A DNA stretch of 64,000 nt from a virus (lineage: Duplodnaviria > Heunggongvirae > Uroviricota > Caudoviricetes), in IMG/VR virus record IMGVR_UViG_3300013800_000004, positions 1 to 64,000 of that record, one strand, 5' to 3'. Below the pieces are notes generated by a model, which searched no databases, was not told where the DNA came from, and saw nothing but the letters and a program-made list of their open reading frames with translations. The translations under genes and the position numbers were made by a program. Positions 15,499 through 36,481 of this stretch are shown piece by piece (the stretch's first letter is position 1; each line of letters starts with the position of its first letter).

Positions 15499-15514
15499 TT
15501 GGGCGTAATAAAAG
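15499..15514 (+). promoter_or_regulatory. Class-1 motif TTGGGCGTAATAAAAG, 18 nt upstream of the ATG at 15532 (with AGGAG SD)
   Basis: Motif recurrence. Confidence 0.4.
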
Positions 15515-15531
15515 CAGGAGAAGTCACACCA

Positions 15532-18000
15532 ATGACCCAGATCACCAAGTTTCCCATTCGCAATTTCAAGGGCGTACCCACCAAGTTTTTCCGCTGTGAG
15601 CGGGAGGACCAGACCACCCAAACGGTGGTGGAGGGGCGCAAGCCCAGCCATCATATTTTGTGCGTGGACAGGAGCGGAAGTATGTACGGCACCATCGGGG
15701 ACGTGAAGAGCACCATCGAGAAGCTCCTCACCCTCACCGAGTTCCGCGACCCGTCCCTCCGCATCTCGCTCATCACCTACTCCAGCCAGGGCGACGTGAA
15801 GCTCCACTTCAAGGGCGTCACCGTGGCCGACGTGATGGCGACCGACTCCCCGCAGCTTCGCGAGATCCGCTCGATCCGCGCCACGTCGATGACGTGCATC
15901 TCGCAGGGATTGGCGCTGGCCGAGTCGCTGATCGACGACGCCGACGTGACGTGCATCACGCTGCACACCGACGGGTACGCCAACGACCGCAGCCCGATGG
16001 CGGAGTCCACGGCCATCAAGGCCACGGTCGAGAAGCTCAAGAAGCACCCCGGTGTGTTTGTGAACTGCATCGGCTACGGCGACTGGTGCGACTACAACCT
16101 CCTGAGCTCCATCTCCAACGCCCTCTCGGGCGTGTGCATCCAGGCCCGCGGCATCGCTCAGGTGTACGAGGCCGTGTACAACACCACGAAGCTCCTCGCG
16201 GGCTCTGTGGCCCCGGCCCTGGAGATCCCCCGCGGCAAGGCCAGCTACGCCTTGTTCGTCTCCACCAGCGCCCGCAAGGTGCTCGGGAGCTCGGACAACC
16301 TTCTCGTTCAGGGCCTCGCGGCGACGGACGACAAGACCGCGTACCGCCTGTACGAGATCACGGAGGCCGAGTACACGGCGCTCCATGCCCCGGTGAACGG
16401 TGAGGACGCCCCGACCGAGCCGGTGCTGGCCTACGCTCGCACCCAGATCGCTGAGGGCCGCCTGAACGCGGCCAAGTACGCCCTCGTCCAGACGCGCTGC
16501 CACGACCTCATCGGCGGGCACGCCAAGGCGCTTGTGGCCTCGGACATCGCGGCCTTCGCGGCGGCGACCGAGGAGTACCTGTTCGACCGCAAGGTGTTCA
16601 CGCCCACGACCAACTACGGCCTCGGCACCACGGGTCCGTCGGTCCTGGAGGTGCTCACGTACCTCAACGCGCACACCGAGAACCTCTCGGTGAACCTCCC
16701 GGCCCTCGCCTCGGGCTACCGTCGCCGGGGTGTCAAGCGCATCCCCGGCACCCGCCTCGCGGACGGATCGGTCGAGGAGCCCACGGTCTTCTCCAAGAGC
16801 CGCGAGGGCGACGGCTGGGTCAAGGTCAACGGCTTCGAGCTCAACCGCAACACCGCGACGGCCAACATGCTGCTCTCGCAGCCCCTCGACCTGTTCGCCA
16901 AGGGGTCTACCACCCGCATCGCCAGCGTCGCGGGCGTGTCCCTCGACAACCTCCGCAGCTTCAACAACTACACCATCGTGGGCGACGGGTCGCTCAACGT
17001 CGCCAGCCTCACCCTCCGCACGGCGGACCAGAAGGTGATCGACGGCCTCCGTGCGATGGGCCTCAACGTCTCGCAGCCCAACGTGCGCGCCGACGCCAAG
17101 GCTGGTGAGCCCTTCAACATCATCCTCTCGGGCCTCCCGCTGGTGGACTACGACCTGAACGTCGGCGGCGTGGACATCACCACGGTCCAGAACCTCACGC
17201 GCCTCACGGTGCTGAGCAAGATCCTCAACGGCATGGTGAAGGGTGACGCCTCGGGGTTCACCACCGAACAGGTGGCCGAGCTCAAGGCCCACTACCTCAC
17301 CCCGGCGCTGAACTTCAGCCCGCCGACGACCACCAGCTACGCCAAGCTGGAGGATGCCCTCGCCACGGGCGAAGTGGACACGAAGCTCTCGTTCAAGGTC
17401 AACGTCGGCACCGCGGCCATCACGGGGGCGGACAAGCTCCGGTCGGGCAACGAGTACCTCCAGCGCCGGTTCACCCTCTCCCTTCTCGGCAAGGACGTGG
17501 AGAAGCCCACGCTCGACATGATCACCCTCCCCGACACCGTGTGGGGCGTGAAGAAGCTCACTGCCCGCACCACCCTCGACGCGGTGGACGAGGTCTCCTA
17601 CCCCATCTACGAGGGCATCCTGGGCCTCGGGACGGGCACGGAGCTCAAGGCGCTCCTGACGCTGGTTGGGTGCGTGGACCCGGACCTCTGGATCGCGAGC
17701 CTCAAGGGCGAGAACGCCAAGGCGAGTGTCAAGGACGCCATTCGGTTCGTGGACCTCGCCATCGAGCGCGCCTACAACGTGATCCGCCCGCTGGCCTTCT
17801 ACGTCGGTGCGACCGGGCTGGTCCCTGACACCCTCGCGGCCAAGGCGTACAACGCCGAGGACTTCGCGGCGGCCTACCCTGAGGCGAAGCTCTCCAAGGC
17901 CGAGAAGGAGGAGGGGTCGTTCTTCGTCCTCCCCGACGGCACGGTCCTCAGCGTGTTTGTGAAGGCGGAGCTCTTCAGCACCGCCTCCACCATCGCTTGA
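15532..18000 (+). CDS. Large vWA domain protein (822 aa)
   Basis: ATG with AGGAG SD, downstream of GGGCGTAATAAAAG. N-terminal VDRSGSMYG…ITYSSQG…ITLHTDGYAND is a vWA/MIDAS domain. The antisense ORF 15358..18054 is an artefact. Confidence 0.7.
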   Translation: MTQITKFPIRNFKGVPTKFFRCEREDQTTQTVVEGRKPSHHILCVDRSGSMYGTIGDVKSTIEKLLTLTEFRDPSLRISLITYSSQGDVKLHFKGVTVADVMATDSPQLREIRSIRATSMTCISQGLALAESLIDDADVTCITLHTDGYANDRSPMAESTAIKATVEKLKKHPGVFVNCIGYGDWCDYNLLSSISNALSGVCIQARGIAQVYEAVYNTTKLLAGSVAPALEIPRGKASYALFVSTSARKVLGSSDNLLVQGLAATDDKTAYRLYEITEAEYTALHAPVNGEDAPTEPVLAYARTQIAEGRLNAAKYALVQTRCHDLIGGHAKALVASDIAAFAAATEEYLFDRKVFTPTTNYGLGTTGPSVLEVLTYLNAHTENLSVNLPALASGYRRRGVKRIPGTRLADGSVEEPTVFSKSREGDGWVKVNGFELNRNTATANMLLSQPLDLFAKGSTTRIASVAGVSLDNLRSFNNYTIVGDGSLNVASLTLRTADQKVIDGLRAMGLNVSQPNVRADAKAGEPFNIILSGLPLVDYDLNVGGVDITTVQNLTRLTVLSKILNGMVKGDASGFTTEQVAELKAHYLTPALNFSPPTTTSYAKLEDALATGEVDTKLSFKVNVGTAAITGADKLRSGNEYLQRRFTLSLLGKDVEKPTLDMITLPDTVWGVKKLTARTTLDAVDEVSYPIYEGILGLGTGTELKALLTLVGCVDPDLWIASLKGENAKASVKDAIRFVDLAIERAYNVIRPLAFYVGATGLVPDTLAAKAYNAEDFAAAYPEAKLSKAEKEEGSFFVLPDGTVLSVFVKAELFSTASTIA

Positions 18001-20013: not shown

Positions 20014-20669
20014 CGCTAACCGCCAACGGTGAGGTGACCATCATCTGCCTCACGGATACTGTTCACCTTCACGACATTGGGGTGCACCTCACCCGGGGCC
20101 ATCGGGTGAACGTCCCCATGACACAGGCTATGAGGTCTCGGGACCTCTCCGCGGCCAAGCAGGACGGGACGGTGGCCATTCAGACCATTCGGTCGGCAGC
20201 GACCGTGCGGGCCCAGGAGTTCACCTCCTCGGACACCACCCACTCTCGCGCCCCTCGGCACAGCCCCGCCCCAGGGGGCCCCGATGCCCTTGCAGTGGCC
20301 ATCGAGCGCCTCACACAGGAGGTCCAGGGGATGCGTGTGGACATCACCCGTCTCCAGCAACAGCGTCCTGTAGCGCCCCCTGTAGCGCCCCCTGTTGTGG
20401 TGGACATCCTGGCAGAGCTCAAGGAATACGTTCGGACCCTGCCACAGGTTGGCCGCACCGAGTCGGCCCTCGAATCAATGAGGCCAACCCAACAGGTCCA
20501 GGGATTCCCCCCGGCGGTGGTGGCAGTCGAGGAGATGTTCATCCCCTCGAATCTCACAGGTGGGGCCACGGCATCAGACCTCAAGGTGGCGTCGGAGACG
20601 TCCACCAGTCCCCAACTCACGGGCACAGCGGAAGCTCTCAAGGCTGCACGGAAGAAGCGTGGGCGGTAA
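20010..20669 (+). CDS. Hypothetical protein (219 aa) with a PVAPPVAPPVVV repeat
   Basis: ATGA overlap with the upstream gene. Contains an internal 12-nt tandem repeat. Confidence 0.5.
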   Translation: MTLTANGEVTIICLTDTVHLHDIGVHLTRGHRVNVPMTQAMRSRDLSAAKQDGTVAIQTIRSAATVRAQEFTSSDTTHSRAPRHSPAPGGPDALAVAIERLTQEVQGMRVDITRLQQQRPVAPPVAPPVVVDILAELKEYVRTLPQVGRTESALESMRPTQQVQGFPPAVVAVEEMFIPSNLTGGATASDLKVASETSTSPQLTGTAEALKAARKKRGR

Positions 20670-20802
20670 CAAGGTGCCCCGGACCCGACCCCTGACCACA
20701 AGCCACCCGGCTGTGTATGGTAAGGGGTTCCGACCGAAGCCCAGTGTGGGTGCAACCGACTGTGTGCAGACGGACAATCAAGGAAGCAATGGGAGTTCAG
20801 TG

Positions 20803-21810
20803 ATGGCAGAGAAAATCAAGCAGGAACAACTCGGGGTGGGGTTGGACGTGGGCACGGGCAACGTGGTCTCGGCCCGCAAGACGGGCACTGGGGTCGAGAC
20901 TCGCCGGGTGCGTGACGCCTTCCTGGAGCTCCCCCTGGACGCCAAGAAGATGCTCAAGCTGGCCAACGTCTCCTACGTGGAGCGGACAGACGAGCTCCTC
21001 ATCCTCGGGGATGCAGCGATGGACACGGCCAATATCTTCGGCCGGGAGGCGCGACGGCCATTGTCTGCGGGGTTGGTGAGCTCCTCGGACATCGACGCCA
21101 TGGAGATCCTCGCGCTCCTCATCAAGAACGTCCTTGGAGACCCCCAGACTCCTGGGGAGCACTGTTACTTCTCGGTGCCTGCGTCCCCCGTGGACCGTCC
21201 GGGCCAGGACGTGATCTACCACCGCGGGGTGCTGGAGAAGATCGTTCGGGAGTGCGGGTACACCCCGACAGCGGGCAACGAGGCGATGGCCATCATCTAC
21301 GCCGAGACCGCCAAGGAGAACTTCTCGGGCATCGGTCTGAGCTTCGGGGCGGGGATGACCAACGTGGCGCTTGCACAGGGGACCATCGAGGGTCTGTCCT
21401 TCTCGGTGAGCCGTGGGGGTGACTGGATCGACAACGGCGCGGCCAAGTCCATCGGGAGCACGGCGTCCCGCATGTGCGCCATCAAGGAGAAGGGCGTGGA
21501 CCTGAACGCCCCGGTGGGTCGGGACCAGGAGGCCATCACCTTCTACTACCGCAACCTCATCGAGTACGCGATTGACCAGATCGCCATGCAGTTCATGGCG
21601 ATCCAGGGGAAGTTCTCCCTCCCCCGTCCGATCCCGATCATCGTGTCGGGAGGTACGTCCAAGGCGGGCGGGTTCCTCGACCTGTTCAAGGCGGTGTTCG
21701 AGAAGAAGCGCAAGAAGTTCCCCATCGAGGTGAGTGAGATCCGCGCCGCCACGGACCCCCTCAACGCCGTCGCCAACGGCCTGCTCATCCAAGCGATGCA
21801 GGAGGAGTGA
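20803..21810 (+). CDS. Actin-fold ATPase (ParM/MreB/Alp-like), 335 aa
   Basis: Internal ATG of ORF 20560 with GGGAG SD. Phosphate-1 GLDVGTGNVV, phosphate-2 GLSFGAGMTNVAL, adenosine IPIIVSGGTSKAGGFLDLF. The antisense ORF 20797..22116 is an artefact. Confidence 0.65.
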   Translation: MAEKIKQEQLGVGLDVGTGNVVSARKTGTGVETRRVRDAFLELPLDAKKMLKLANVSYVERTDELLILGDAAMDTANIFGREARRPLSAGLVSSSDIDAMEILALLIKNVLGDPQTPGEHCYFSVPASPVDRPGQDVIYHRGVLEKIVRECGYTPTAGNEAMAIIYAETAKENFSGIGLSFGAGMTNVALAQGTIEGLSFSVSRGGDWIDNGAAKSIGSTASRMCAIKEKGVDLNAPVGRDQEAITFYYRNLIEYAIDQIAMQFMAIQGKFSLPRPIPIIVSGGTSKAGGFLDLFKAVFEKKRKKFPIEVSEIRAATDPLNAVANGLLIQAMQEE

Positions 21811-25361: not shown

Positions 25362-26270
25362 ATGTCCCGTTTCAGTACCAAGTTCCTGTTCCTCATGGGA
25401 GTCCTCGCCAGCACCATCGCCTGCACCACGGTGGAGCCCGGTCAGGTCGGGATCGAGATCCGCTTCGGCCAGATCCAGGGGGGCGTCCTTCCTCCGGGCA
25501 TGTACGGCACGGTTATCTCCGGGGTGAAGACCCTGTCCACCCAGACCCAGACCTACACCATGGCGGGCGCGGGCACCGAAGGAGCCGGTGATGGCAGCGT
25601 GAACGTGCTGGCTCGCGATCAGCTTCCCGTGAAGCTCGACGTGTCGGTCATGTTCCACCTCAATGGTGATCGGGCCATCTCCGTCTTCCGTTCCTTCGGG
25701 GAGCGGTACGATAACAACATCGTCCACCCCCTCGTCCGCACGGCGGTCCGCGACGCTGCCAGCGAGTTCACCGCCGTGGACCTCATCGACCGCCGTGCGG
25801 AGCTTCAGGCTCGCATGACCACCCTGGTCCGGGGCACGCTGGCTTCAACCCTCCAGGGCCGTCGGGTGAACGCGGATGCTGTGGTCGTGGACAACATCCT
25901 CATCCGCAACATTGATCTTCCCCAGAGTATCGACGAGGCCATCGCCAACGTCCAGCGCCAGCGGCAGATGACGGCGGCGAGCACCCAGGCGAACCTCACG
26001 GCCCAGCAGGAAGCCGCGCGTGCCCTCACTGTCGCCAACGGCGAAGCCGCCGCCCTCATCGCCCGTACCCGCGCCGACGCCGAGATGCTCACGATCCGTA
26101 CGACGGCCCAGGCGAACGCCAACCGTGCCTTGTCGGCCTCCCTCACCCCGGAGTTCCTTCAGTACGAGCGCATCCAGGCCACCCGTGCGGTCCTGGGGTC
26201 GAACGGCACCCGGACGGTGTTTCTCCCGGCGGGGATGTCCCCCAACATGCTGATGAGCGCCCCCCAGTGA
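25362..26270 (+). CDS. SPFH/band-7 (prohibitin/HflK-C-like) domain lipoprotein (302 aa)
   Basis: AAGGAG SD downstream of GGGCGTAATACACC. Lipoprotein signal MSRFSTKFLFLMGVLASTIAC. SPFH core EPGQVGIEIRFGQI…LPVKLDVSVMFHL… with a C-terminal coiled-coil. Confidence 0.6.
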   Translation: MSRFSTKFLFLMGVLASTIACTTVEPGQVGIEIRFGQIQGGVLPPGMYGTVISGVKTLSTQTQTYTMAGAGTEGAGDGSVNVLARDQLPVKLDVSVMFHLNGDRAISVFRSFGERYDNNIVHPLVRTAVRDAASEFTAVDLIDRRAELQARMTTLVRGTLASTLQGRRVNADAVVVDNILIRNIDLPQSIDEAIANVQRQRQMTAASTQANLTAQQEAARALTVANGEAAALIARTRADAEMLTIRTTAQANANRALSASLTPEFLQYERIQATRAVLGSNGTRTVFLPAGMSPNMLMSAPQ

Positions 26271-26852: not shown

Positions 26853-29800
26853 ATGCCCAGAGACATCACAGGTGGATACGCGCCCCCCGGCGTGTACACG
26901 CAGACCTTCTTCGGTGCACCTCCAACGGTGCCCGGGGTTCCCCCCCTGGTCCCCCTTTACATCGGGACGGGGTCGGAGATCCTGGTCCAGACCAACCTCC
27001 CGGTGGTCCGTGGGAGTTCGTCGTCCGTCGATCAGCAGATCGTCAACGAGGACGAGACGGGGCGCGCGGTGACCAACATCGCCCCCTCGGGTCTTGTCAC
27101 CCTGGGGGCCTTTGACGGCACCTTCAACCGTTTCCAGGTCAGGAACTTCCCCCTGGTCAACGGGGACGGGTCGGGGACGACCGCGGTGGACACCTCGGCG
27201 GTGTCTGTCACCCTCAACGGCGACCCTGTGGTGGTCCTTGGGATTGACGGTGCCAAGGGCATCGTTGAAATCTCGGAGTACCCGACGGCGACAGATGTCG
27301 TGCTGGTCACCTACTACTTCGACCGCACGGACACCCTGGTGACGGACACTGTGTCCGCACAGGTGACGCCAACGGCTGCGATCCTCAACGGCCGCACCGG
27401 TCAGAACTTCACCTTCACGTCGGGCACCAACCAGTTCATGCTCTCGGTGGACGGCCTCCCCGAGGTGACAGTCACCCTCCCCATCTCGACGGTGACGGGC
27501 GCGGTGGTGGTTGCGACCATCAACGGGACGGCGGGCATCGGGTCGCTGGTGGCAAGCACCTTTGTGGACAACCTCGGTCAGACCTGTGTGCGCCTCACGG
27601 CAGACAAGTCCATCGTGGTCGGTGCGGGCTCCGCCAACGATGTGATCGGGTTCGTGGCCAACGATGCCACCTCGCGGAACGCCACGTTCGTGGTGTTCAA
27701 CCACCCCATCGTGAACGGCAGCGGCGGTGGTGTTACCACCACCAACCCGCTGGACGTGCGGGTGCTGGTGGACTCCGTCCAGGTGACCCCGACGGCGGTC
27801 AACGGTCGTACAGGATCGGTCACTCTCCCGTTTGCGCCCAAGCGCGGGAGCGTGGTGACGATCCAGTACTACTTCAACTCCTGGCAGGACACGTTCGACT
27901 ACCTTGCCAACACGGGCGTCACGGCGATCACCCGGGCGGGCATCACGGCGACATCGAACGGGGCGGGCCTGTTCATCCAGGGTGCGGACTACATCCTCAA
28001 GAACGACACCATCGTGTGGGGCACCTCGGTGCTCGTGAACACGGGGCTGCACACGGAGGGTTCGACTGCCTTCGGTAGCACCCAGGTGACGGCGAGCTTG
28101 GTGGACAACCAAGCGTTCATGGCGGAGTGTTCCCGGGTGCTCACCACCTCGGGCACGATCACCACGGAGTCCAAGACTCAGTTCCAGCTTCCGTTCCAGC
28201 CCACAACGGGCAACGGTCGGAACTCCCCCTTGGGCACGACCAACTACCTCACTGTGTCCAACGGCCGCATGGACCTCCCGACGGACCAGCCCGACCTTGT
28301 GGTGGCCTACTGGGGATTCGGCGTCCAGGATGCCTACCAGCGCGGCCCCGTCACGGTGACCAAGGTGGACAGCGCCACCAGCACGATCACCCTGGCTGGG
28401 GATGTGCCCGTGGGCGCGACGGTGTACGCGACCTTCTACTACAACACCCTGACGGACCAAGCGTTCATCGGGTCGTCCCGTGGGTACACCCTCACCTGTG
28501 CGGCATCAGGCACCTCGGGTGCGGGTACGTACACGATCACGGACGGGTTGAACCTCCCGGTCTATGGCGTGACCTTCCTGGGCAAGGGAGCAGCCCTGAA
28601 CACCATCGAGGTGATGTTCCCGAGTGGTTCGGAGTTCGTCTCCGATGCCCGGCTGGAGAACGGGGCCCCCACCCTGGAGACGGTGACCGTCCAGTTTGCG
28701 TCCACAGACGAGACTCCGGCCAAGTTCACCGTTCCGGGCGCGAGCCCGTACAACACAGTGTCGGGCCAGTCCTCGAACCTTCGGGTGACCATCGACGCCG
28801 TCGCTGGCACCACGGGCGCGGCGGGTGGCATCAACCTCACGGCCCCCACGGGTTCGAGCCGGGGTGGTGCATTCGCATCCATGCTGGGTGACGAGGCCCC
28901 CTACACGGCGGCTTCCGGTGAGGTCACCTTCCCCATCACGGCGGGGGTGGACGACACCGTCTCGGTCCTCGTGGACGGGGTGTCCATCACGGCAACCGCC
29001 GCAGCGGGTGGGGCTCAGGACCTCACGGCTTTCCGTGATGCCATCAACACCGCGGTGCTGGCCACCGACCCGTACCTCACCGGGGCAGGCAGCTTCCCCA
29101 GTGGTTACACGGTCGTGGCGAGCGAGTACGACCGCCTCAACCTCCACTACACGGGGTCGGTCGGGGGTGCTTCGGGCAACCAAGTTCTCACCTTCACCCC
29201 CGCGGCGTACACGACCGTGGCCCTCTTGGCCACCGAGATCAACACCCAGCTTGCCACCATCAATGGCCTGGGCGGCCTCGGCGCCTCGGTGACCTGTGCC
29301 GCCACGGCAGACAGCAAGCTCCGGTTCACCATGGCCCTCGCCCTGGCGATGAGCACCCTCACCGCGGTGGGCCTCCCGACGGCGGGTGACACGGTCACCC
29401 TCAACGGCAAGGTGTACACGTTCACGTCGCCCCTTGGAGGCGCAGACGGAGACGTCCTCATCGGTCTGTCGGCCAGCGCGTGCCTCGACAACCTCATCGC
29501 TGCGATCACCCTGGGTGCAGGCTCGGGTGTGACATACGCGGCTGCGACCACACTCCACCCGACGATCACCGCGGAGGCCGGTCCTGGCGACACCCTGCGG
29601 GCATACGCCAAGAGCCGGGGCTCGGCGGGCAACCTCCTCACCACGGCGGCATCCATCACTGGCCCCTCGGTGTGGGGATGGACGGGTCTCACCCTCGCGG
29701 GTGGTGACGACGCAGGGTTCCTGGAGTTCATCAACGATGCCACCCCGGCGCGGGACTTCGCGATCATCGCGGGCATCGACGCGGGTGCTGCAACCCTGGG

Positions 29801-32129
29801 TGTCCAGACCAAGCTGGTCAACGGCCCCATCGCCAGCGTGTACACGGTCACGGCGGCATCGGGACGCAAGCCCTACGACCGCCTCGCCCTCCGCAACCGG
29901 GTGTTCCCTGGCAGCGGCAGCGTAGCCCCGTGGAGCGCCCTGTCTCAGATGGGAATCCAGTCCCAGGGTGGCAACGGTGCCGCTCTTGCGGGTCTGCCCT
30001 CGGGCCTCCTCGGTGAGGGTTCCTGGGGTGGTGGGGTCTACTCCCCGACTCTCCTTGGTTCGGTGGGCTGGAGTGGTGGGCAGGCGACCGGCTACGTAGA
30101 CGCACGGGACGGTCAGCCCAACGTGGTGTTCTACGACGGGTCGGGCACCGAGGCAGCCAACAACGTCCTCAAGCTCACCCTGAACGGGTCGCTGGTGACG
30201 GTGGTGTTCTCCGCCACCGACGTGGGCAAGGACACGGCCCTCGGCCCTGCATCTGTGTCCGGGTCGGTCCTTGGGGTCATCAACGCGGCGCTCCCCTCGG
30301 GTGTGGTCGCTGCCCAGGAGGGCGCATCCATCCGGTTCTACGCGACGGGCACCGAGTACTTCTCGGAGTCGGCCCAGTTCATCGTGGGTGACGGCTCGGC
30401 TAACGAGACCCTGGGTCTCACCTCGGGTGACGTGGCAGCAGCCACCCCGATCACGGCCAAGCAACTGGCTTCGACCCTGACGAGCCACATCGCCACGGGG
30501 GACTTCGCGGCGTGGATGTTCCTCCCGTCCACCTCGTCCGCGGGCTACTTCTCGGCCAAGGCTCTCGCCACCACGGTGACCGGAGCCACGGGCGATGAGT
30601 ACCTGTCTCTCCAGAGCAAGACCCTCGGGACTGCGTCGAGCTTCTTGTTCGCCAACGCCACCACCAACGACGCCCTCCGCACGAGGTCGGGTCTGGGTGT
30701 GGTTTCGGGTGATGGTAGCTCGGGGGAGCCCGCACTCAACGGGTTCTTCGTCACCTCGTCGGATCCCACCAGCGGATCGGGCAGCGCGGACACCTCGGTG
30801 TTCAACGCGGGGGTCGGTCAAGACGGGTTCGTGGGTCAGACCTACGTGGACGACGTGACGGGTCTGACCTTCACGGTCCTCCCCCGTGCGGGCGGGCTGT
30901 CGTACCCCACGGGTGCAACGTCCACCCTGTCGTTCCGGGTGTCCACCAACTTCGTGACGGATGCCAACATCCCCACGCTGGCCATCCCCGGTCTGGAGCT
31001 CGTGGTGGCCAACACCGTGGGTGTCCCGGTGGGGGACACGGCCCTGGTGGAGACCTTCAAGCGCGGAGGGTCGGAGCCCAACATCGGGGAGGTGTACTAC
31101 GTCTCGTACAACTACCTGAAGACGGACTTCTCCCCCAAGCTGTTCTCCCGTCTCTCGGACGTGGTGAACGAGTATGGGCCGGTGTCCCCGGACAATCCCC
31201 TGTCCCTCGCCGCGTACTTCGCGTTCCTCAACGGTTCGTCGGTCATCGGGTGCCAGCAGGTGCCCAAGACCCCGGGCCTGTCCACGGCGTCCGAAGCCGC
31301 ATACACGGCAGCCATCGACCTGTCCTCGGGGCCGTCGCTCCCTGGCTTTGTGTCCCCCGCAGTCCTGGTGGTCCTCACCCCGGCCACGGAGAACCTCGCC
31401 AAGTACATGACGATCCACTGCGACGTGCAGAGCTCGATTCGCTACAAGGCGGAGCGCACGGCGATCTTCGGGTTCGGTTCGGGCACCCGCACCGATCAAG
31501 CCCTCGCCATCGCGGCAGTGGCGGGAGACACCAGGGTCCGGTTCGTGTACCCTGACATCGCATCCGTGTCCCTCACCGACGTACTGGGCGTCACCCGGAC
31601 CTACTTGGTGGACGGTCGGTACCCGGCGGCAGCAGTCGCCGCGGCCACCACGGCGTCCACCATCGACCCGGCCACCCCGTGGGAGTCGCGTCAGATCGTC
31701 GGGTTCACGGCCCTCAACCGCCGCCTCGACGCGGTCACGGCCAACCAACTGGCAGTGGGCGGTATCACGGTGCTGGAGAACCGGCCCCCGTTCATCCGCA
31801 TCCGCCACGGCGTCACCTCGGACGTGACCAACATCCTCACCAAGACCCCGACCGTGATCCAGATCGCGGACGAGATCCAGAAGAGGGTGCGGGCAGTCTG
31901 CTCCCCGTTCATCGGGGCCAAGTTCCTCCCGCAGATTCTCGGCCAGATCGAAGGCCGCCTGTCGGAGATGTTCAAGCAGGCCGTCGCAGAACAGATCATC
32001 ACCACGTTCACCGGCATCACCGTGAACGTGGACCCGACGGACCCGACGGCGGTCATCGTGGAGGCGTACTACCAGCCCGTCTGGCCGCTCCTCTACGTGC
32101 AGATTTCGCTCCGCGTCAGCGCACAGTAG
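26853..32129 (+). CDS. Giant (1758 aa) T/G/S/V-rich structural protein, possibly a tail sheath with large insertions
   Basis: ATG with GGAG upstream. N-terminal …GGYAPPGVYTQTFF resembles the sheath PGVY motif. C-terminus …ITVNVDPTDPTAVIVEAYYQPVWPLLYVQISLRV. It lies directly upstream of the tube, chaperone and tape-measure genes. The antisense ORFs 26748..28460 and 28506..32318 are artefacts. Confidence 0.6.
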   Translation: MPRDITGGYAPPGVYTQTFFGAPPTVPGVPPLVPLYIGTGSEILVQTNLPVVRGSSSSVDQQIVNEDETGRAVTNIAPSGLVTLGAFDGTFNRFQVRNFPLVNGDGSGTTAVDTSAVSVTLNGDPVVVLGIDGAKGIVEISEYPTATDVVLVTYYFDRTDTLVTDTVSAQVTPTAAILNGRTGQNFTFTSGTNQFMLSVDGLPEVTVTLPISTVTGAVVVATINGTAGIGSLVASTFVDNLGQTCVRLTADKSIVVGAGSANDVIGFVANDATSRNATFVVFNHPIVNGSGGGVTTTNPLDVRVLVDSVQVTPTAVNGRTGSVTLPFAPKRGSVVTIQYYFNSWQDTFDYLANTGVTAITRAGITATSNGAGLFIQGADYILKNDTIVWGTSVLVNTGLHTEGSTAFGSTQVTASLVDNQAFMAECSRVLTTSGTITTESKTQFQLPFQPTTGNGRNSPLGTTNYLTVSNGRMDLPTDQPDLVVAYWGFGVQDAYQRGPVTVTKVDSATSTITLAGDVPVGATVYATFYYNTLTDQAFIGSSRGYTLTCAASGTSGAGTYTITDGLNLPVYGVTFLGKGAALNTIEVMFPSGSEFVSDARLENGAPTLETVTVQFASTDETPAKFTVPGASPYNTVSGQSSNLRVTIDAVAGTTGAAGGINLTAPTGSSRGGAFASMLGDEAPYTAASGEVTFPITAGVDDTVSVLVDGVSITATAAAGGAQDLTAFRDAINTAVLATDPYLTGAGSFPSGYTVVASEYDRLNLHYTGSVGGASGNQVLTFTPAAYTTVALLATEINTQLATINGLGGLGASVTCAATADSKLRFTMALALAMSTLTAVGLPTAGDTVTLNGKVYTFTSPLGGADGDVLIGLSASACLDNLIAAITLGAGSGVTYAAATTLHPTITAEAGPGDTLRAYAKSRGSAGNLLTTAASITGPSVWGWTGLTLAGGDDAGFLEFINDATPARDFAIIAGIDAGAATLGVQTKLVNGPIASVYTVTAASGRKPYDRLALRNRVFPGSGSVAPWSALSQMGIQSQGGNGAALAGLPSGLLGEGSWGGGVYSPTLLGSVGWSGGQATGYVDARDGQPNVVFYDGSGTEAANNVLKLTLNGSLVTVVFSATDVGKDTALGPASVSGSVLGVINAALPSGVVAAQEGASIRFYATGTEYFSESAQFIVGDGSANETLGLTSGDVAAATPITAKQLASTLTSHIATGDFAAWMFLPSTSSAGYFSAKALATTVTGATGDEYLSLQSKTLGTASSFLFANATTNDALRTRSGLGVVSGDGSSGEPALNGFFVTSSDPTSGSGSADTSVFNAGVGQDGFVGQTYVDDVTGLTFTVLPRAGGLSYPTGATSTLSFRVSTNFVTDANIPTLAIPGLELVVANTVGVPVGDTALVETFKRGGSEPNIGEVYYVSYNYLKTDFSPKLFSRLSDVVNEYGPVSPDNPLSLAAYFAFLNGSSVIGCQQVPKTPGLSTASEAAYTAAIDLSSGPSLPGFVSPAVLVVLTPATENLAKYMTIHCDVQSSIRYKAERTAIFGFGSGTRTDQALAIAAVAGDTRVRFVYPDIASVSLTDVLGVTRTYLVDGRYPAAAVAAATTASTIDPATPWESRQIVGFTALNRRLDAVTANQLAVGGITVLENRPPFIRIRHGVTSDVTNILTKTPTVIQIADEIQKRVRAVCSPFIGAKFLPQILGQIEGRLSEMFKQAVAEQIITTFTGITVNVDPTDPTAVIVEAYYQPVWPLLYVQISLRVSAQ

Positions 32130-32205
32130 TGAAATCACTGGGGTTTCTGGTAACCCAGAGCTCCAGTTGACAGGGTGAGTGGGTTCATGGTAAGGTTCTA
32201 CTACC

Positions 32206-33468
32206 ATGAACCCACCCGACCCGCTCACCTGTCCCGTCTGCACCCAATCCTTCAACACCCCCAAAGGGCTCCCAAACCACTTCCGGCATCGTCGGGATGC
32301 AGGGGACGCTCTGCACATCGCCTACGAGACCGCACAGGAGAACGCCCGGTGGGAGCACCTCACGGAGGGTGCCGACTATGTGCGGTGTCTGGAGTGTGGG
32401 CATCGTACGGTCACCCTCGCCCGCCACCTCAAAGGTGAGCACGGCATCACGGCGGACCAGTACCGGGTGAAGCATGGGACGCACACCCCTATTCGCTGCG
32501 ACGCCCTCAAGGCCAAGCGTGGGGCAGCCATCTCGGCGCGACCCATCACCAAGGGTGAGGTGAAACAGGTGTCGTGCCCGACGTGTGGAGGTACATGGGA
32601 GGGGTCAAAGTACCTTGGGGCAGTCCACGACCTTCGATGCCCTGTGTGCCGCGAACGGGAGTGGGAGGGGAAGTCGGAGCCCCAAGACTTCGTGACGTGC
32701 CGGGTGTGTGGCCACCGGGCCGAGAACCTCACGTCCCACATCACCAAGGACCACCCACACCTTCTGGGCACTTACCGCAATGCCTACCCCGGGGCAGAGT
32801 TGGTTGCTCTGTGTAGCCCTGTGAGGGACAAAATGGCGACCCGTGGGGTGCCCCGGTCGTTTGCATTCAAGCTCAGGGTCTCACAGGGGAAACTGGCATC
32901 TGGGTTCCGGCACTCAGCACGCTCCCGTGCGATGATGTCCACGTCTCAGAAGGCAGTGGGGCGTACGGTGCTGTTGAGCATGTCAGTGCTTGGTGGTTTT
33001 CGTCTCATGAACGGGAAAATCTCAGTCGGCAAGGCGATGTCAGGTTTGGGGAGGTGCCGTGAGGTGATCCGCCGAGAGTGCATCCGTCACGGGCTCGCGT
33101 ACCACAACTGCCTCGTGTCCCAGGACAGGTTCTTAGGCATTCTGTCTAGGATTCTCGGGTGTGAACCTCACCGGGAGTGGTCGTCAGACATGTTCGTGAA
33201 CCCGCGGTCAGGCAGGCGGTTCAAGTTCGACGGGTACTGGGAGTCACACAACCTCTTGGTGGAGTTCCAGGGTTACCAGCACAGGGTGTACCCCAACAGG
33301 TTCCACCACACGGAGGAAGACTTCATCGACGCCCAGTGGCGAGATGATGAGAAACGTCGTCAGGTAGCAGTAGGGACCCACCGCTACCTGGAGGTCCACG
33401 ACCATGAGCCCTGGGGGGACGAGACGTACCTCCGTGAACGTCTTCGTGCCCTTGGTCTCCCTGTCTGA
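32206..33468 (+). CDS. Free-standing nuclease with multiple C2H2/C2HC zinc fingers and a C-terminal PD-(D/E)xK Vsr/DUF559-like domain; paralog of 479..1957
   Basis: Fingers LTCPVCTQSFNTPKGLPNHFRH, VRCLECGHRTVTLARHLKGEHG (MucR/Ros-like), VSCPTCGG…, VTCRVCGHRAENLTSHITKDH. C-terminus RFKFDGYWESHNLLVEFQGYQH…DAQWRDDEKRRQVAVGTHRYLEV. Confidence 0.6.
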   Translation: MNPPDPLTCPVCTQSFNTPKGLPNHFRHRRDAGDALHIAYETAQENARWEHLTEGADYVRCLECGHRTVTLARHLKGEHGITADQYRVKHGTHTPIRCDALKAKRGAAISARPITKGEVKQVSCPTCGGTWEGSKYLGAVHDLRCPVCREREWEGKSEPQDFVTCRVCGHRAENLTSHITKDHPHLLGTYRNAYPGAELVALCSPVRDKMATRGVPRSFAFKLRVSQGKLASGFRHSARSRAMMSTSQKAVGRTVLLSMSVLGGFRLMNGKISVGKAMSGLGRCREVIRRECIRHGLAYHNCLVSQDRFLGILSRILGCEPHREWSSDMFVNPRSGRRFKFDGYWESHNLLVEFQGYQHRVYPNRFHHTEEDFIDAQWRDDEKRRQVAVGTHRYLEVHDHEPWGDETYLRERLRALGLPV

Positions 33469-33567
33469 CCCACCCCCGGTTCCCCTCCTATACTCCAGGC
33501 ATGGACAACAGCACCGCGTCCTTGCGGGTGCGGCGGTAGCAACCCTATCGGCCCGGAGAAGTAGACC

Positions 33568-34407
33568 ATGCCCAACCAAGACCGCAGCCCCGCCAACGGT
33601 TCGCAAGGATCCAGCTACTTGTACGACTACGGAACCACTCCGAACACCCGCACCGCGGTGTCTCAGAAGGTCCGTATTCTCGCGCCGGTCTTTGGTGCGA
33701 CGACCCCGGCCCTCTACCAGATGGGTGTGGTGAGCTCGTTCAACCCGACCAGCAGCCGCACGGTGGAAGAGATCCGAGGCATTGGCTACGGCGACATGAT
33801 CGCGGAGCTCGTGCCCAGCATCACCGGGGCGACCACGGCGAGCATCGAGCGTGCACTTCTGTACCTCTCGAACCTCTGCCAAGCCTTGGGCTACGCGGGT
33901 GGTGTGGATGGCCCGGTGCGTTCCCTCGCGCACCACCGCTGGCCGTTCGACATCGAGATGCAGCTGGTGTTCTCGTCCCTCGCGGACATGGACCTGGGTG
34001 TCGCCAACAAGGGCACCAGCGCACCGACAGGTGCGGCGAGCACGGGCTTCGGACAGGGCGTCCGTCCCGTCCGCTACCCGAACCTCGCCACGGGACAGCC
34101 CACCACGGGCCCATACCCAGGCACAGGGACACTGGGTCACAGTGCCATCATCACCATGTACGAGGCTTGCTGGCTGACCTCCTGGGGTGTCTCGGGTTAC
34201 TCCAAGGATTCGGGCCAGATCATGGAGACCGGCGAGTGCATGGTGTCCGACGTTCACGACTTCGCCAGCACCTACGGCGAGTTCCTGCCTGGAGGTAACG
34301 ATCCAAGTGCTGGACAACTCGGATCAATCCGGTACGGTGCTGCTTCGCGCTACAGCACGGGTGACAGCCTCACCTCGGGTGGCTCATCCCCGGGCGTCAC
34401 GATCTGA
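33568..34407 (+). CDS. Putative tail tube protein, assigned from position only (279 aa)
   Basis: ATG with GGAG SD. It lies between the sheath-like gene and the chaperone-like genes. No motif-level support. Confidence 0.45.
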   Translation: MPNQDRSPANGSQGSSYLYDYGTTPNTRTAVSQKVRILAPVFGATTPALYQMGVVSSFNPTSSRTVEEIRGIGYGDMIAELVPSITGATTASIERALLYLSNLCQALGYAGGVDGPVRSLAHHRWPFDIEMQLVFSSLADMDLGVANKGTSAPTGAASTGFGQGVRPVRYPNLATGQPTTGPYPGTGTLGHSAIITMYEACWLTSWGVSGYSKDSGQIMETGECMVSDVHDFASTYGEFLPGGNDPSAGQLGSIRYGAASRYSTGDSLTSGGSSPGVTI

Positions 34408-34416
34408 AATCAAGAC

Positions 34417-34450
34417 GGGCTCATAGGGTGTTGAAGCACCCTACGAGCCC
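34417..34450 (+). terminator. Hairpin after the putative tube gene
   Basis: GGGCTCATAGGGTG-ttgaag-CACCCTACGAGCCC (14-bp stem, 1 mismatch). Confidence 0.4.
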
Positions 34451-34479
34451 TAAGCACTCAACCTGGACAAGAGGTCAAG

Positions 34480-35250
34480 ATGCCTGCCCACCCTACCCCA
34501 CTTGGGGGTCTCTACATCATCCGTCTGTCAGACACCCACTACTATGGTGGGCGATCCACCAACTGCCCTCTCCGGTGGAAAACCCACCTTCGTGACCTGA
34601 GGGCTGGCACCCACGACAACAGCCGGATGCAGGCGGTGTTCAACATCCATGGCCGGTTCGAGCCTACTGTGACTGTTCCTTGGACTGAGGGGCTGGACCT
34701 TCGGGCGGTGGAACAGCAGTGGTTGGACGAGAACTTCCGCAAACCGGGCTGTGTGAATCAGGTCTGTACGTCTGACGGAGGCGGCGGAAAATGGTCCGAC
34801 GAGCAAAAGGTGAAACGCCGTTCTTTTCTGGATTCGCACCCAGATGTGCTGGACAAAGCCCGAGAGGTGTTGAGGAAACACCACGCCCAAGCGGTTGCGG
34901 AGTCCAAGGTGGTCAGGCAACGCCCTGGTGGCTACACCAAGATCATCGAACTGAACCGGGCACGGGCTGGTGTCCCGCAGAAGCCTGAGCATGTAGCCCG
35001 GCGTGCAGAGTCCAACCGCGGACGCAAGAACACCGCTGAGACCGTCCAACGGATGTCTGAGTCGGCCAAGGTCCGCGCCCAAGCACACCCGACGGTTCAC
35101 GGCGTGGGCACCCGGGAGCTCATCTCGTCACAGCAGCGTGGCCGGGTGTGGGTCCACAATGCGACTATCAACCGTCGAGTGTGGCCCCACGAGGCTCAGG
35201 AGCTCATGTCTCAAGGCTGGGAGCCCAACAGGTTGCCCAACCGTGTCTGA
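34480..35250 (+). CDS. GIY-YIG homing endonuclease (256 aa)
   Basis: GLYIIRL…YYGGRSTN…RWKTH…NSRMQAVFNIHG, the canonical GIY-YIG/R/H/N signature. Free-standing between tail genes. Confidence 0.7.
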   Translation: MPAHPTPLGGLYIIRLSDTHYYGGRSTNCPLRWKTHLRDLRAGTHDNSRMQAVFNIHGRFEPTVTVPWTEGLDLRAVEQQWLDENFRKPGCVNQVCTSDGGGGKWSDEQKVKRRSFLDSHPDVLDKAREVLRKHHAQAVAESKVVRQRPGGYTKIIELNRARAGVPQKPEHVARRAESNRGRKNTAETVQRMSESAKVRAQAHPTVHGVGTRELISSQQRGRVWVHNATINRRVWPHEAQELMSQGWEPNRLPNRV

Positions 35251-35332
35251 TCCAAGTTCCCCCCTGAGCGGTACGGTGAGGGCGAGAGGGGGGTGACTTC
35301 TCTCGCCCTCGTCACATTCGGAGATCACCAAC

Positions 35333-36481
35333 TTGGCACTCTCACTCAAAGACCTCCAAGCAGTCATGGCCCCACTCACGGAGATTGGGAAGGGGGAGTC
35401 CACCTTCGACGTGGATGGCCTTACCATCACCATTCGCACGCTCACTCCAGAGGAGGAAATCTCTATCCAGAGGTACGCCCGTGGAGCCCTTACGGAGGGG
35501 GATGCCAACGACCAGATCAACGCCCTGGACTACCTGGATCGGTTCCGGTCGGCGTGTCTGGGGCACGCCATCATGCAGATTGGTGGCTTGGACTTCCGGG
35601 GGGTGGCCACGGTGGAGACGGGCGAGACCCTCCCGTCTGGAGTAACCGTGAAGGTCAAGAAGCACGAAGCCATCATGCAGGTGATTGGGACTTGGTCCCG
35701 ACCCATGGTGGTGGCAGTGTTCAACCGGTTCACCTCTCTCATGGAGCGCATTGAGTCGAACGTCGAGAAGAGCCTGAAGTACGACGACGATCACATCGAG
35801 GCCGAGATTGCCCGGTTGGAGGAGAAGCTCGCAGAGCTCAAGGCCACCAAGGGCAAGCAGGACTCTGGGACTCATGATCCTCGCAAGGACGCCATCGAGG
35901 TGGCCTCAGGTCGCCCCACCAAGCCCAGGGAGGAACCCGCGACGGAGCCTGACACAACTCCGGTGACATGGGAGACCGCCCGGGTGAATCGCACCTCGGA
36001 CGAGTCCCCCCTGTCTGTCGACGTGGCCGAGGGGGTACCCAAGGCCCTCGATGAGGGCGTGTCGGTGGTCCCGGTGGCAGCACAGCCCATGGTGGAGAAC
36101 CCCCCCGCGGAGGCCCCTGCGGCTCCGCAGCGTCGGTCTCCTGTGTTCGGGGAGCGCCCTCCCGTGCGGAACGTCCCCAAGGCGGAAGAGCCCTTTGACC
36201 CTCTGCAAGATGTGGCATCGTCACTGGTGGACACCAGCGACCCTGAGGTGATCGAAGCGGAGAACCGCCGCCTCATGGCGGAGCGCGCCAAGCGAATCCC
36301 TCCCCATCAGTCGGCCCGCGAGGTGGCTCAGTCCATCGAGCAGGCTGGCACCCGTGATGGGCTGCCCGTGTTCAGGATGCCGACGGAGAACCTCAACTCG
36401 GAGACCACACCGCGTGTGGTTCGGCAGCCTCCGCCGGTCACGCGGAGCAACACCAACCCCAACTTTCGCCCCGCCAAGTGA
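35333..36481 (+). CDS. Tail assembly chaperone-like protein (382 aa)
   Basis: Located just upstream of the tape-measure gene. Its N-terminal domain KDLQAVMAPLTEIGKGESTFDVDGLTITIRTL is homologous to the N-terminus of the next gene. Confidence 0.5.
   Translation: MALSLKDLQAVMAPLTEIGKGESTFDVDGLTITIRTLTPEEEISIQRYARGALTEGDANDQINALDYLDRFRSACLGHAIMQIGGLDFRGVATVETGETLPSGVTVKVKKHEAIMQVIGTWSRPMVVAVFNRFTSLMERIESNVEKSLKYDDDHIEAEIARLEEKLAELKATKGKQDSGTHDPRKDAIEVASGRPTKPREEPATEPDTTPVTWETARVNRTSDESPLSVDVAEGVPKALDEGVSVVPVAAQPMVENPPAEAPAAPQRRSPVFGERPPVRNVPKAEEPFDPLQDVASSLVDTSDPEVIEAENRRLMAERAKRIPPHQSAREVAQSIEQAGTRDGLPVFRMPTENLNSETTPRVVRQPPPVTRSNTNPNFRPAK

Follow-up and report, generated by a model that had tools for sequence, protein, structure and literature searches.

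We found that the open reading frame (ORF) at 32206..33468 of the window, by which we mean the whole 64,000-nucleotide stretch of viral DNA under analysis, probably encodes a homing endonuclease that is free-standing and belongs to the Vsr-like (EDxHD/DUF559-like) branch of the PD-(D/E)xK superfamily. The gene is an optional insert, known also from degenerate copies, at one locus between two conserved structural genes. We infer DNA cleavage, a target site and homing itself for its 420-aa product. The novelty lies in the combination of domains, a Vsr-like nuclease with a new DNA-binding array, and not in a new type of system. The features referred to below, with coordinates in the window, are as follows.

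479..1957, + strand: second zinc-finger nuclease, with several CCHC fingers, a single Ros-type one and DUF7487 repeats; its Vsr-like nuclease belongs to another sequence family
26853..32129, + strand: upstream sheath-like structural gene, 1758 aa (weak Phage_sheath_1C match)
32167..32196, + strand: promoter-like element, TTGACA (32167-32172), an 18-nt spacer and TAAGGT (32191-32196), read from the sequence
32179..32215, + strand: hairpin with a perfect 14-nt inverted repeat (32179-32192 and 32202-32215), from folding, shuffles and relatives
32206..33468, + strand: zinc-finger/Vsr-like nuclease ORF, 420 aa, putative free-standing homing endonuclease (ORF, homologues, conserved residues and model)
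32230..32289, + strand: finger 1, a C2H2-like knuckle (C9/C12/H25/H28), from sequence reading and a weak zf-C2H2_4 match
32371..32526, + strand: finger 2, a Ros/MucR-type DNA-binding domain (C61/C64/H74/H79 and the following helices), from Pfam and 2jsp
32575..32649, + strand: finger 3, a C4 zinc ribbon (C124/C127/C145/C148), from weak zinc-ribbon Pfam matches
32683..32790, + strand: finger 4, a second Ros/MucR-type finger (C165/C168/H178/H183), all four ligands invariant
32791..33105, + strand: variable basic linker (NUMOD3-like repeats) and helix-turn-helix-like element, aa 196-300, from mosaic DNA identity and model helices
33106..33468, + strand: Vsr-like nuclease domain, aa 301-420, with D342, E353, G356, H359, D380 and K383 conserved
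33469..33567, + strand: downstream spacer with a conserved TTCCCCnCCTATAC element, a small hairpin and the GGAGAAG Shine-Dalgarno sequence of the next gene
33568..34407, + strand: downstream structural gene, 279 aa, provisionally 'tube' (37 related loci)

The ORF runs from its own ATG to its own stop exactly within its bounds. The ORFs on either side are complete and separate from it, and it is associated with neither an intron nor an intein. A search of 31000..36000 for Rfam intron families returned none even at E<=1; the only matches were sub-threshold 'miRNA' ones that reflect the hairpin at the start codon. The protein search yielded 104 homologues, with identities from 100% down to about 30%, and intact full-length copies occur in at least six related contigs. 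The AlphaFold2 model of the protein has a mean pLDDT of 88.6. The GC3 of the ORF is 75%, compared with 79-86% in the flanking genes. At the DNA level the locus had no near-identical match among GenBank phages, and the protein search among phages found weak C-terminal matches only, to genes that are uncharacterised or labelled 'HNH/homing endonuclease'. A six-frame HMM search of the window revealed no third copy of a zinc-finger nuclease.

The zinc-finger array is anchored by Pfam ROS_MUCR (PF05443), which matches aa 56-107 with 49.5 bits (cut-off 25.4; E 5e-13) and is matched by 56 of the 58 family members. The structure of the Ros DNA-binding domain, 2jsp, was recovered with an E-value of 0.0024 from the single sequence and 5.7e-9 from the family profile. 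The four ligand sets listed above were read from the sequence, and most of the ligands are invariant or nearly so in the 58 sequences; in finger 3, no change is seen at C127, C145 or C148, and C124 is kept in at least 90%. The region of finger 1 is matched by zf-C2H2_9 in 20 of the 58 members. Because aa 7-87 align with aa 122-191 at an E-value of 5e-8, the array is an internal duplication, in which fingers 3 and 4 duplicate fingers 1 and 2; the same internal alignment places the second Ros-type copy at aa 160-195.

The array is followed by a linker whose DNA is 49-63% identical to that of the relative L006, while the spacer upstream of the gene is 57% identical and the flanks are about 100% identical. 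Identities calculated segment by segment among close alleles likewise describe a mosaic in the linker, the part of the gene that recombines. A weak NUMOD3 match is present in 5 of the 58 members, and matches to helix-turn-helix families in 6-8 of them; the window protein itself gives neither, and its AlphaFold2 model has helices at 219-294 in this region.

For the C-terminal domain, a fold search with the nuclease model gave Vsr, the catalytic domain of the homing endonuclease I-Bth0305I and DUF559 as best matches, with I-Bth0305I, Vsr and NGO0050 as the top three solved structures, so the domain is predicted to have the Vsr endonuclease fold. Fold comparison alone succeeded here: no significant sequence match was found in Pfam (58 members), NCBIfam or the PDB, and the family profile reached a probability of 0.5% when compared with E. 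coli Vsr by hhalign. D342, G356, H359, D380 and K383 are invariant among the 58 sequences (35-85% identity), and E353 is present in at least 90%. D342, H359, D380 and E353 occur in the order expected for Vsr Asp51, His69, Asp97 and the Phe62 position, an equivalence drawn from motif register; E353 lies three residues ahead of the conserved Gly, as Vsr Phe62 lies before Gly65, and D380 falls on Vsr Asp97 in the non-significant hhalign alignment. No residue could be matched to the N-terminal Glu of the pattern, Vsr Glu25. The canonical D...(D/E)-x-K motif of the second and third core strands is not kept, though D342 and E353 are present and the fold is that of the superfamily. Position 355, the canonical Lys site, is variable (Q in the window protein), and an invariant K383 stands on the following helix instead. 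The model thus points to a Vsr-like (EDxHD/DUF559-like) variant of the PD-(D/E)xK superfamily and not to a canonical member. The original prediction of a gene for zinc fingers and a PD-(D/E)xK-superfamily nuclease is borne out by the ROS_MUCR match and the fold, with the qualification that the nuclease is this variant. The domain is widespread, being shared by 672 cluster representatives; these were obtained by an exhaustive search of representatives, which was needed since the nuclease domain alone returned just three fragments from a word-indexed database.

The original prediction had also described the gene as a paralogue of 479..1957, with the same architecture and a different finger array. 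The arrays do differ in number and type of fingers, with about five CxxC...H...C fingers and one Ros-type finger in 479..1957, and the middle of that protein consists of DUF7487 'RYG..NP' helical repeats, whereas the 420-aa protein has the NUMOD3-like linker and helix-turn-helix. Common to both are an N-terminal zinc-finger array with a Ros/MucR-type finger, a C-terminal Vsr-like nuclease, a '(V)VE-x-x-G-x-x-(x)-H'-like motif and a 'strand + acidic + helix' ending. The shared architecture holds at the level of superfamily and fold only: models of both nucleases find the same top three structures, and the C-terminal family of 479..1957 aligns with E. coli Vsr in such a way that PDF and GxFWH coincide (hhalign E 3.5e-4). 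It does not hold for the nuclease sequences, where hhalign of the two C-terminal families in local and global mode gave probabilities of 2.8% and 1.3% and detected no homology. The original prediction had named a lack of detectable homology between these C-terminal domains as its refutation, and at the sequence level this was the outcome. Only the Ros-type finger regions are homologous (BLASTP E 4e-7 and 9e-7); HMM cross-matches were N-terminal only, and the Ros-type finger of 479..1957 aligns to both Ros-type copies of the 420-aa protein. By these sequence comparisons, the two zinc-finger nucleases of the window are not close or demonstrable paralogues.

The gene was said to lie between sheath-like and tube genes, and its position between two structural genes is as described, with provisional names for both neighbours. 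Phage_sheath_1C matches aa 1667-1749 of the 1758-aa upstream protein with an E-value of 0.0017, below the cut-off; the protein has no sequence match in the PDB and PHROGs did not confirm 'sheath'. The name 'tube' found no support, as the 279-aa protein has no Pfam or PDB match and phrog_985 'virion structural protein' was assigned in just 2 of 15 relatives. The last 25 or so codons of the sheath-like gene (YYQPVWPLLYVQ...) are the most conserved DNA beside the insert, and this 3' end is a candidate homing target region. It encodes the C-terminal motif YYQPV[F]PLLY, which is kept in all 47 loci, with F replaced by W solely in the window's clade; the codon is TGG (W) there and TTC (F) elsewhere, a difference that is the one lead to a cleavage target and is confounded by phylogeny. 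On the other side of the gene, homology with gene-less relatives restarts at about 33532. The downstream spacer also contains a promoter-like CTGACC-18-TATACT at 33465-33494, and one gene further downstream a GIY-YIG homing endonuclease gene (34480..35250) forms another indel. A duplication at the flanks had been suggested as a check; no target-site duplication was found, only short repeats of the chance type. For example, a 10-nt repeat, CCGTGAACGT, at 32020 and 33432 is at chance level, with about 1-2 such pairs expected in 1.9 kb. Homing leaves no target-site duplication.

We collected 31 related loci via the downstream 279-aa gene. The nuclease family is present in 10 of them, a fingers-only form in one (L007), and the remaining 20 have neither. 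L007 has lost the nuclease region and retains an intact 251-aa fingers-only ORF. L042 is a near-exact deletion of the ORF, relative to which the indel spans about 32118..33531, and it retains the hairpin, codons 1-8 (with ATG changed to ACG and TGTCCCGTCTG kept) and the 3' end of the gene. Truly naive empty sites are restricted to the distant relatives L010, L039 and L023. The proposed intergenic insertion is thus confirmed as an optional insert. The expectation that the flanking genes are contiguous in relatives holds for L023, L010, L039 and L042, where they are separated by 16, 130, 138 and 201 bp; it does not describe the slot in general, where the gap ranges from 16 bp to 7.5 kb. The slot after the sheath-like gene is a hypervariable cargo hotspot. 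When relatives are ranked by identity, the gene and its flanking genes give the same order, and therefore its history in this clade looks mostly vertical; no clear recent invasion was caught among the related loci compared. All nine further homologues looked up, some of them about 40% identical, lie 66-90 bp downstream of a sheath-like gene of 1427-1770 aa.

The start of the gene is embedded in a hairpin whose 3' arm includes the ATG and codons 2-4. It folds at -32.1 kcal/mol (z -5.95), none of 200 shuffles folded as well, and it stands out when compared with 20 gene starts in the window. Compensatory changes and G-U wobbles are found in the arms in L007, L055, L056, L057 and L042, and in 16 of 17 homologue loci the gene start has a counterpart of this hairpin built from unrelated sequences. 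The promoter-like element overlaps the hairpin. A generic sigma-70 scan misses it because TAAGGT fits at only three of six positions; the pattern TTGA[CT]-N16-18-TAnnnT occurs upstream of 8 of the 17 homologue genes, compared with 0.4% of random 70-nt windows. Transcription from this element would begin a few bases further on and give an almost leaderless RNA without the 5' arm. A hairpin that hides the start together with an internal promoter has been described for I-TevI/II/III, segB and mobE (PMC2988022), and Vsr-like free-standing endonuclease genes have the same design, with the hairpin kept after loss of the gene (PMC2677866). We infer a regulatory role for the hairpin and its promoter-like site. 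The palindrome was also considered as a recurring operator or as a twin of the homing site; its arm has 10 matches elsewhere in the window (with up to three mismatches) where 6.3 are expected, which does not exceed chance.

These features suggest how the gene could work as a homing endonuclease. The N-terminal two-thirds of the protein may serve as a modular recognition array, made of two 'zinc knuckle/ribbon + Ros/MucR-type finger' units, the basic NUMOD3-like linker and the helix-turn-helix. This array would place the Vsr-like domain, with D342, E353, H359, D380 and K383, to cut a specific site in related phages that lack the gene; the highly conserved 3' end of the sheath-like gene, or the DNA beside it, is the likeliest place for this site. 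During co-infection, the break would be repaired from the gene-carrying genome, so that the gene and nearby sequence are copied into the recipient. Transcripts reading through from the sheath-like gene would fold the hairpin and bury the start codon, keeping expression low and late, while transcripts from the promoter embedded in the hairpin would lack the 5' arm and be translatable.

The same locus can be read in another way, namely that the protein is a domesticated Ros/MucR-type regulator or autorepressor of the tail/late module or of host genes, with a nuclease that is secondary or does not serve homing, and that the gene is kept by the sheath-like gene as useful to the phage. We consider this unlikely. 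ROS_MUCR is a family of transcription regulators and databases call the homologues 'MucR family transcriptional regulator'; I-TevI is known to be both an endonuclease and an autorepressor (PMC2988022); and a perfect palindrome over promoter and start could be an operator. The intact fingers-only ORF of L007, the constant position just after the sheath-like gene even at about 40% identity and the identity ranks that track those of the flanks would fit as well. That the family stays strictly with the sheath-like gene across such deep divergence may mean that the phage benefits from it, a point against homing. However, the gene is dispensable, being absent from 20 of the 31 related loci, and the invariance of its putative catalytic residues throughout the family speaks for selection to retain nuclease activity. 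The G-U wobbles in the arms of L007, L055 and L056 favour an RNA hairpin over a DNA operator, and the palindrome does not recur in the window beyond chance.

It is similarly doubtful that the protein is a restriction-like weapon against the DNA of the host or of co-infecting phages, acting without copying itself and with self-protection by sequence difference or modification. This reading draws on the other contents of the slot. In L027-L030 and P0261/P0287 the same nuclease family, with its motifs intact, is fused to an N6/N4 DNA methyltransferase, C5 and N6/N4 methyltransferases occupy the slot in other relatives, and many viral structural neighbours of the nuclease are annotated 'restriction endonuclease'. 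The nuclease-methyltransferase fusions in the slot look more like restriction than like homing. [quoted passage not shown] Finally, although the region is GC-rich with many overlapping spurious ORFs, it is scarcely credible that the frame is a chance ORF or a decayed pseudogene without function, given the 104 homologues that keep ligands and catalytic residues, the confidently predicted fold (pLDDT 88.6) and the intact copies in related contigs, and we rejected this explanation.

Taking the gene as a homing endonuclease, we can propose, quite tentatively and as an improbable extension, a natural 'zinc-finger nuclease' lineage in which tandem, swappable prokaryotic Ros/MucR-type fingers set a long target. 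It would be specialised on a single site at the end of the sheath-like gene across a very large group of uncultured phages with big genomes (130-450 kb), some members having a fused methyltransferase that protects the carrier. If true, such proteins would stand halfway from homing endonucleases to restriction-modification enzymes of the single-chain type. The Vsr-like family is, to our knowledge, the least studied family of homing endonucleases, with one enzyme characterised. Our results add a sizeable branch that profile libraries miss and whose members are mislabelled in databases as MucR regulators. Tandem Ros/MucR-type fingers are unreported for homing endonucleases and could possibly be used in engineering nucleases for long sites. 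The locus also offers a natural life-cycle series of intact, linker-swapped, nuclease-deleted, ORF-deleted (with hairpin) and naive states, and the control by a hairpin with internal promoter, as in T4, appears to have a parallel in these GC-rich phages, which are unrelated to T4. General concepts are unchanged by the finding.

Among known systems, we know of no characterised member of the DUF559/NGO0050-type proteins or of the zinc-finger and 'restriction endonuclease' proteins of giant viruses and uncultured phages. The 420-aa family differs from the DUF559/NGO0050-type proteins in having no Pfam DUF559 sequence match, and the pairing of Ros/MucR fingers and the sheath-linked locus are specific to it. 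With Ros/MucR (2jsp), the protein shares the CxxC-x9-H-x4-H finger and the following helices. In contrast, Ros/MucR regulators are small, single-finger proteins encoded on alpha-proteobacterial chromosomes, whereas this gene lies in a phage-like element and its product has two Ros-type fingers, each paired with another zinc module and fused to a nuclease.

Like the T4 seg/mob genes (PMC2988022), the gene is optional between conserved genes and has another homing endonuclease gene nearby, and it has a comparable modular DNA-binding part, with zinc fingers and putative NUMOD/HTH elements, and a start-sequestering hairpin with an internal promoter-like site. It differs in its catalytic domain, which is Vsr-like and not GIY-YIG/HNH, and in the C-terminal position of the nuclease, the reverse of the I-TevI order; the promoter-like element looks sigma-70/actinobacterial-like (TTGACA / TAnnnT), unlike a T4 late promoter.

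The likeness to I-Bth0305I and the EDxHD family, including phage Hef, covers several levels. In I-Bth0305I the DNA-binding modules come first and a Vsr-like nuclease forms the C-terminus (Taylor 2011, PMC3239194), the domain order found here. Where Vsr has Phe62, an invariant Glu is reported for Vsr-like homing endonucleases (Dassa et al. 2009, PMC2677866); the Asp / Glu-x2-Gly / His / Asp pattern of the 420-aa protein, with its putative extra Glu at that position, is in line with this. Both are also free-standing phage genes with a 5' start-hiding hairpin that contains a promoter or promoter-like site and outlasts loss of the gene. The EDxHD family is defined by BLASTP E<1e-3 together with shared motifs, and the 420-aa nuclease falls outside this sequence limit. 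It is further set apart by its duplicated zinc-finger array with Ros/MucR-type fingers, which goes beyond NUMOD/HTH motifs, and by the invariant Lys (K383) on the helix after the Asp.

The gene at 32206..33468 probably encodes a free-standing Vsr-like homing endonuclease, whose cleavage activity, target and homing are putative. It lies in the window together with the following features.

Features of the window (the names sheath-like and tube are provisional)
479..1957: second zinc-finger nuclease gene, used for comparison
15499..18000: VWA protein
20560..21810: 416-aa protein matching Pfam Volactin (actin homologue, E 1e-75)
25362..26270: Band_7/SPFH protein
26853..32129: sheath-like gene (1758 aa)
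32179-32192 and 32202-32215: arms of a perfect 14-nt inverted repeat
32206..33468, + strand: gene under study (420-aa ORF, ATG to stop)
33568..34407: downstream 279-aa gene, the tube gene of the original prediction
34417..34450: GC-rich 14-bp hairpin (GGGCTCGTAGGGTG...CACCCTATGAGCCC) directly after the 279-aa gene stop, 30 nt 5' of the GIY-YIG start
34480..35250: GIY-YIG free-standing homing endonuclease gene, one gene 3' of the gene under study (phrog_314, E 1e-12; Pfam GIY-YIG slightly below cut-off)

With the downstream 279-aa protein as query, 37 viral contigs were found and analyzed by tblastn and HMMs, and locus counts were restricted to the 31 related loci (L numbers) showing both flanks. 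The gap between the sheath-like and downstream genes measures 16 bp (L023), 130 bp (L010), 138 bp (L039), 201 bp (L042) and up to 7.5 kb (L027). It holds the nuclease family in 10 of 31 loci, fingers only in one (L007), and neither in 20; the ten comprise full-length genes (L006, L013, L014, L036), nucleases with a short N-terminus (L019, L020), and 739-763-aa fusions with an N6/N4 DNA methyltransferase (L027-L030). DNA homology of the window with L042 stops at 32117 and restarts at 33532, while with L007 it continues to 32855 and restarts at 33532, and the nuclease half has therefore been deleted in L007. Both are decay states: L007 (9232..9987) retains a 251-aa fingers-only ORF, and L042 (9794..10000) shows a nearly exact ORF deletion that kept the hairpin, with a compensatory change removing the ATG. 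L042 was rejected as a naive site because it still has the hairpin 5' of the gene, codons 1-8 (with ACG in place of ATG and TGTCCCGTCTG kept) and the ORF's final bases.

In the closest relative, L006, the flanks are ~100% identical, the upstream spacer 57% and the linker region (32800-33100) 49-63%. The linker is a mosaic among close alleles, with 52-58% identity to the allele P0002 and halves at 87% and 71% to P0003. Nine more homologues (six at ~40% identity, three at 62-74%) all sit 66-90 bp 3' of a 1427-1770-aa sheath-like gene, and the genes 3' of them differ. Because of this presence and absence, the mosaic linker, the states of L007 and L042 and the sheath-linked homologues, we conclude that the family is optional, recombining, decaying in place and bound to one site, which is how a site-specific free-standing homing endonuclease gene behaves. 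Within the window's clade, the identity of the gene to its relatives follows the same rank order as that of the flanking genes, indicating mostly vertical inheritance, with faster evolution than its neighbours. In the sheath-like gene, short patches at 29100..29300 and 30200..30300 are 80-93% identical to L006 and the rest is 100% identical, which suggests small recombination or hypervariable patches.

A domesticated Ros/MucR-type regulator would fit the strict synteny with the sheath-like gene and the fingers-only ORF of L007, but the absence of the nuclease family from 20 of 31 loci and the invariance of the putative catalytic residues make this reading unlikely. It is also improbable, in our judgement, that the protein is a restriction-like exclusion nuclease, a role compatible with homing to which the methyltransferase fusions and neighbours in relatives and the structural neighbours annotated "restriction endonuclease" would point. 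A chance ORF is excluded in this window of 62.7% GC with many spurious overlapping ORFs, and the gene predicted at 32206-33468 is real: its protein has 104 homologues in a metagenome protein collection, the nearest identical (on a 148-kb contig) and the most distant at about 30% identity; in an alignment of 58 sequences the zinc ligands and several acidic, His and Lys residues are invariant or almost so; and the AlphaFold2 model is confident (mean pLDDT 88.6). No close cultured phage was found for the locus or the protein.

In other relatives (L013, L034, L031, L040) the slot has further cargo: L034 has a 708-aa fusion containing a C5 cytosine methyltransferase, L013 a homologue of AAT-like acyltransferases, and several more ORFs are unassigned. 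The sheath-to-tube slot is a general hotspot for accessory genes. In the fusions (L027 2601..4820, L030 7006..9297, P0261, P0287), the nuclease, its motifs intact, is fused with HTH modules, zinc-finger modules and, at the C-terminus, an N6/N4 DNA methyltransferase, possibly combining a homing-endonuclease-like nuclease with a self-protecting methylase. The GIY-YIG indel (about 34341..35246) is missing in L006 (flanks 99-100% identical), L001, L007 and L042, while the same slot carries the gene at 53% aa identity in L008/L009 and at 46% in L013. Where the GIY-YIG gene is inserted, the 279-aa gene has a different 3' end, over its last ~18 codons. The hairpin at 34417..34450 leaves the GIY-YIG start codon uncovered, and may be a terminator or a piece of the GIY-YIG cassette. 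The Volactin gene and the nearby Band_7/SPFH and VWA genes are unusual cargo for a phage-like element with relatives on 130-450 kb contigs.

The N-terminal 195 residues of the 420-aa protein contain four zinc sites.

Zinc sites of the 420-aa protein
Finger 1: C9/C12/H25/H28, C2H2-like knuckle
Finger 2: C61/C64/H74/H79, Ros/MucR-type (Pfam ROS_MUCR E 5e-13, 49.5 bits, cut-off 25.4)
Finger 3: C124/C127/C145/C148, C4 ribbon
Finger 4: C165/C168/H178/H183, second Ros-type finger

The family profile matched the Ros DNA-binding domain 2jsp (E 5.7e-9), and residues 7-87 align to 122-191 (E 5e-8), so the array is a two-finger unit duplicated in tandem. Residues 196-300 are basic and helical and had no Pfam match in the window protein; among 58 family members, Pfam gave weak NUMOD3 matches in five and helix-turn-helix families in 6-8. 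The nuclease domain had no Pfam or PDB sequence match covering it, including in 58 family members searched against Pfam, and the family profile gave no significant alignment with E. coli Vsr. Its conserved residues are D342, E353, G356, H359, D380 and K383 (58-sequence alignment). The label PD-(D/E)xK is correct at the superfamily level, and Vsr-like is the accurate name, since D...(D/E)xK lacks its canonical Lys here, position 355 being variable.

The 479..1957 protein (492 aa, its start at 479 backed by homologue lengths) has ~five CxxC...H...C fingers and a single Ros-type finger, helical modules with a repeated "RYGV..NP" motif (Pfam DUF7487) in its middle, and PDF...VVEAFGDYHH in its C-terminal domain. 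The finger arrays thus differ as predicted, and the two proteins share a broad design and nuclease fold; the "same architecture" does not extend to close paralogy. Sequence similarity is confined to the Ros-type finger region, family HMMs cross-match in N-terminal parts only, and C-terminal homology was not detected by hhalign (2.8% local, 1.3% global), so that, judged by sequence, they are separate families. The 479..1957 family aligns to Vsr with motifs in register (hhalign, E 3.5e-4) and is closer to it in sequence than the 32206..33468 nuclease.

The array of fingers, linker and HTH would recognise a long target close to the sheath-like gene's conserved end. There (window 32050..32129), ~70 nt before the stop, the encoded YYQPVFPLLY is almost invariant across 47 loci and is a candidate lead to the target. 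Its Phe is TTC in 40 loci; Trp (TGG, two base changes) occurs only in the window's clade, which has an intact nuclease gene. L042 and L007, the two closest relatives with a deleted or defective nuclease gene, have TTC, and other clades with the gene keep TTC. The difference may be a target/immunity polymorphism or mere shared ancestry, as phylogeny confounds the two.

The 3' arm of the inverted repeat at the gene start holds the ATG together with codons 2-4. The RNA fold (-32.1 kcal/mol, z -5.95) is much stronger than those of the start regions of 19 other window genes, and the arms covary among relatives, with G-U wobbles (window GTGGGTTCATGGTA, L007/L055 GGGGTTCGTAGT, L056 GTAGGTTGGCTCATAGT, L057 AGGCCGGTCGGGTCAT). 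Distant homologues have unrelated hairpins (-17 to -49 kcal/mol) over the AUG or a GGAGG Shine-Dalgarno, and 16 of 17 homologue loci have a hairpin covering one or the other. A TTGACA-18-TAAGGT element, read from the sequence, overlaps the 5' arm, and TTGA[CT]-N16-18-TAnnnT lies upstream in 8 of 17 homologues versus 0.4% of random windows. Read-through mRNA from the sheath-like gene would be translationally silent, and translation would come only from transcripts initiated inside the hairpin.

Many uncharacterised proteins of phages and giant viruses combine zinc fingers with a Vsr/DUF559-like nuclease, and free-standing Vsr-like homing endonucleases are published (PMC3239194, PMC2677866), as are their regulatory hairpins (PMC2677866). 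New here are the tandem Ros/MucR-type array as the DNA-binding part, a combination with a homing endonuclease not described in titles or abstracts retrieved by full-text literature search; a nuclease sequence family (672 representative clusters) absent from current profile libraries; and a fixed locus linked to the sheath-like gene. By motif-only mapping, the register Asp, Glu-x-x-Gly, His and Asp on the following helix fits the pattern of Vsr-like homing endonucleases, including their Asp/His/Asp set (Taylor et al., PMC3239194), and E353 would be the counterpart of their extra Glu at the Vsr Phe62 position (Dassa et al., PMC2677866). The proposed arrangement of hairpin and internal start is described for I-TevI/II/III, segB and Aeh1 mobE (PMC2988022), as well as for metagenomic Vsr-like free-standing endonuclease genes, where the hairpin stays after gene loss (PMC2677866), as it does in L042.
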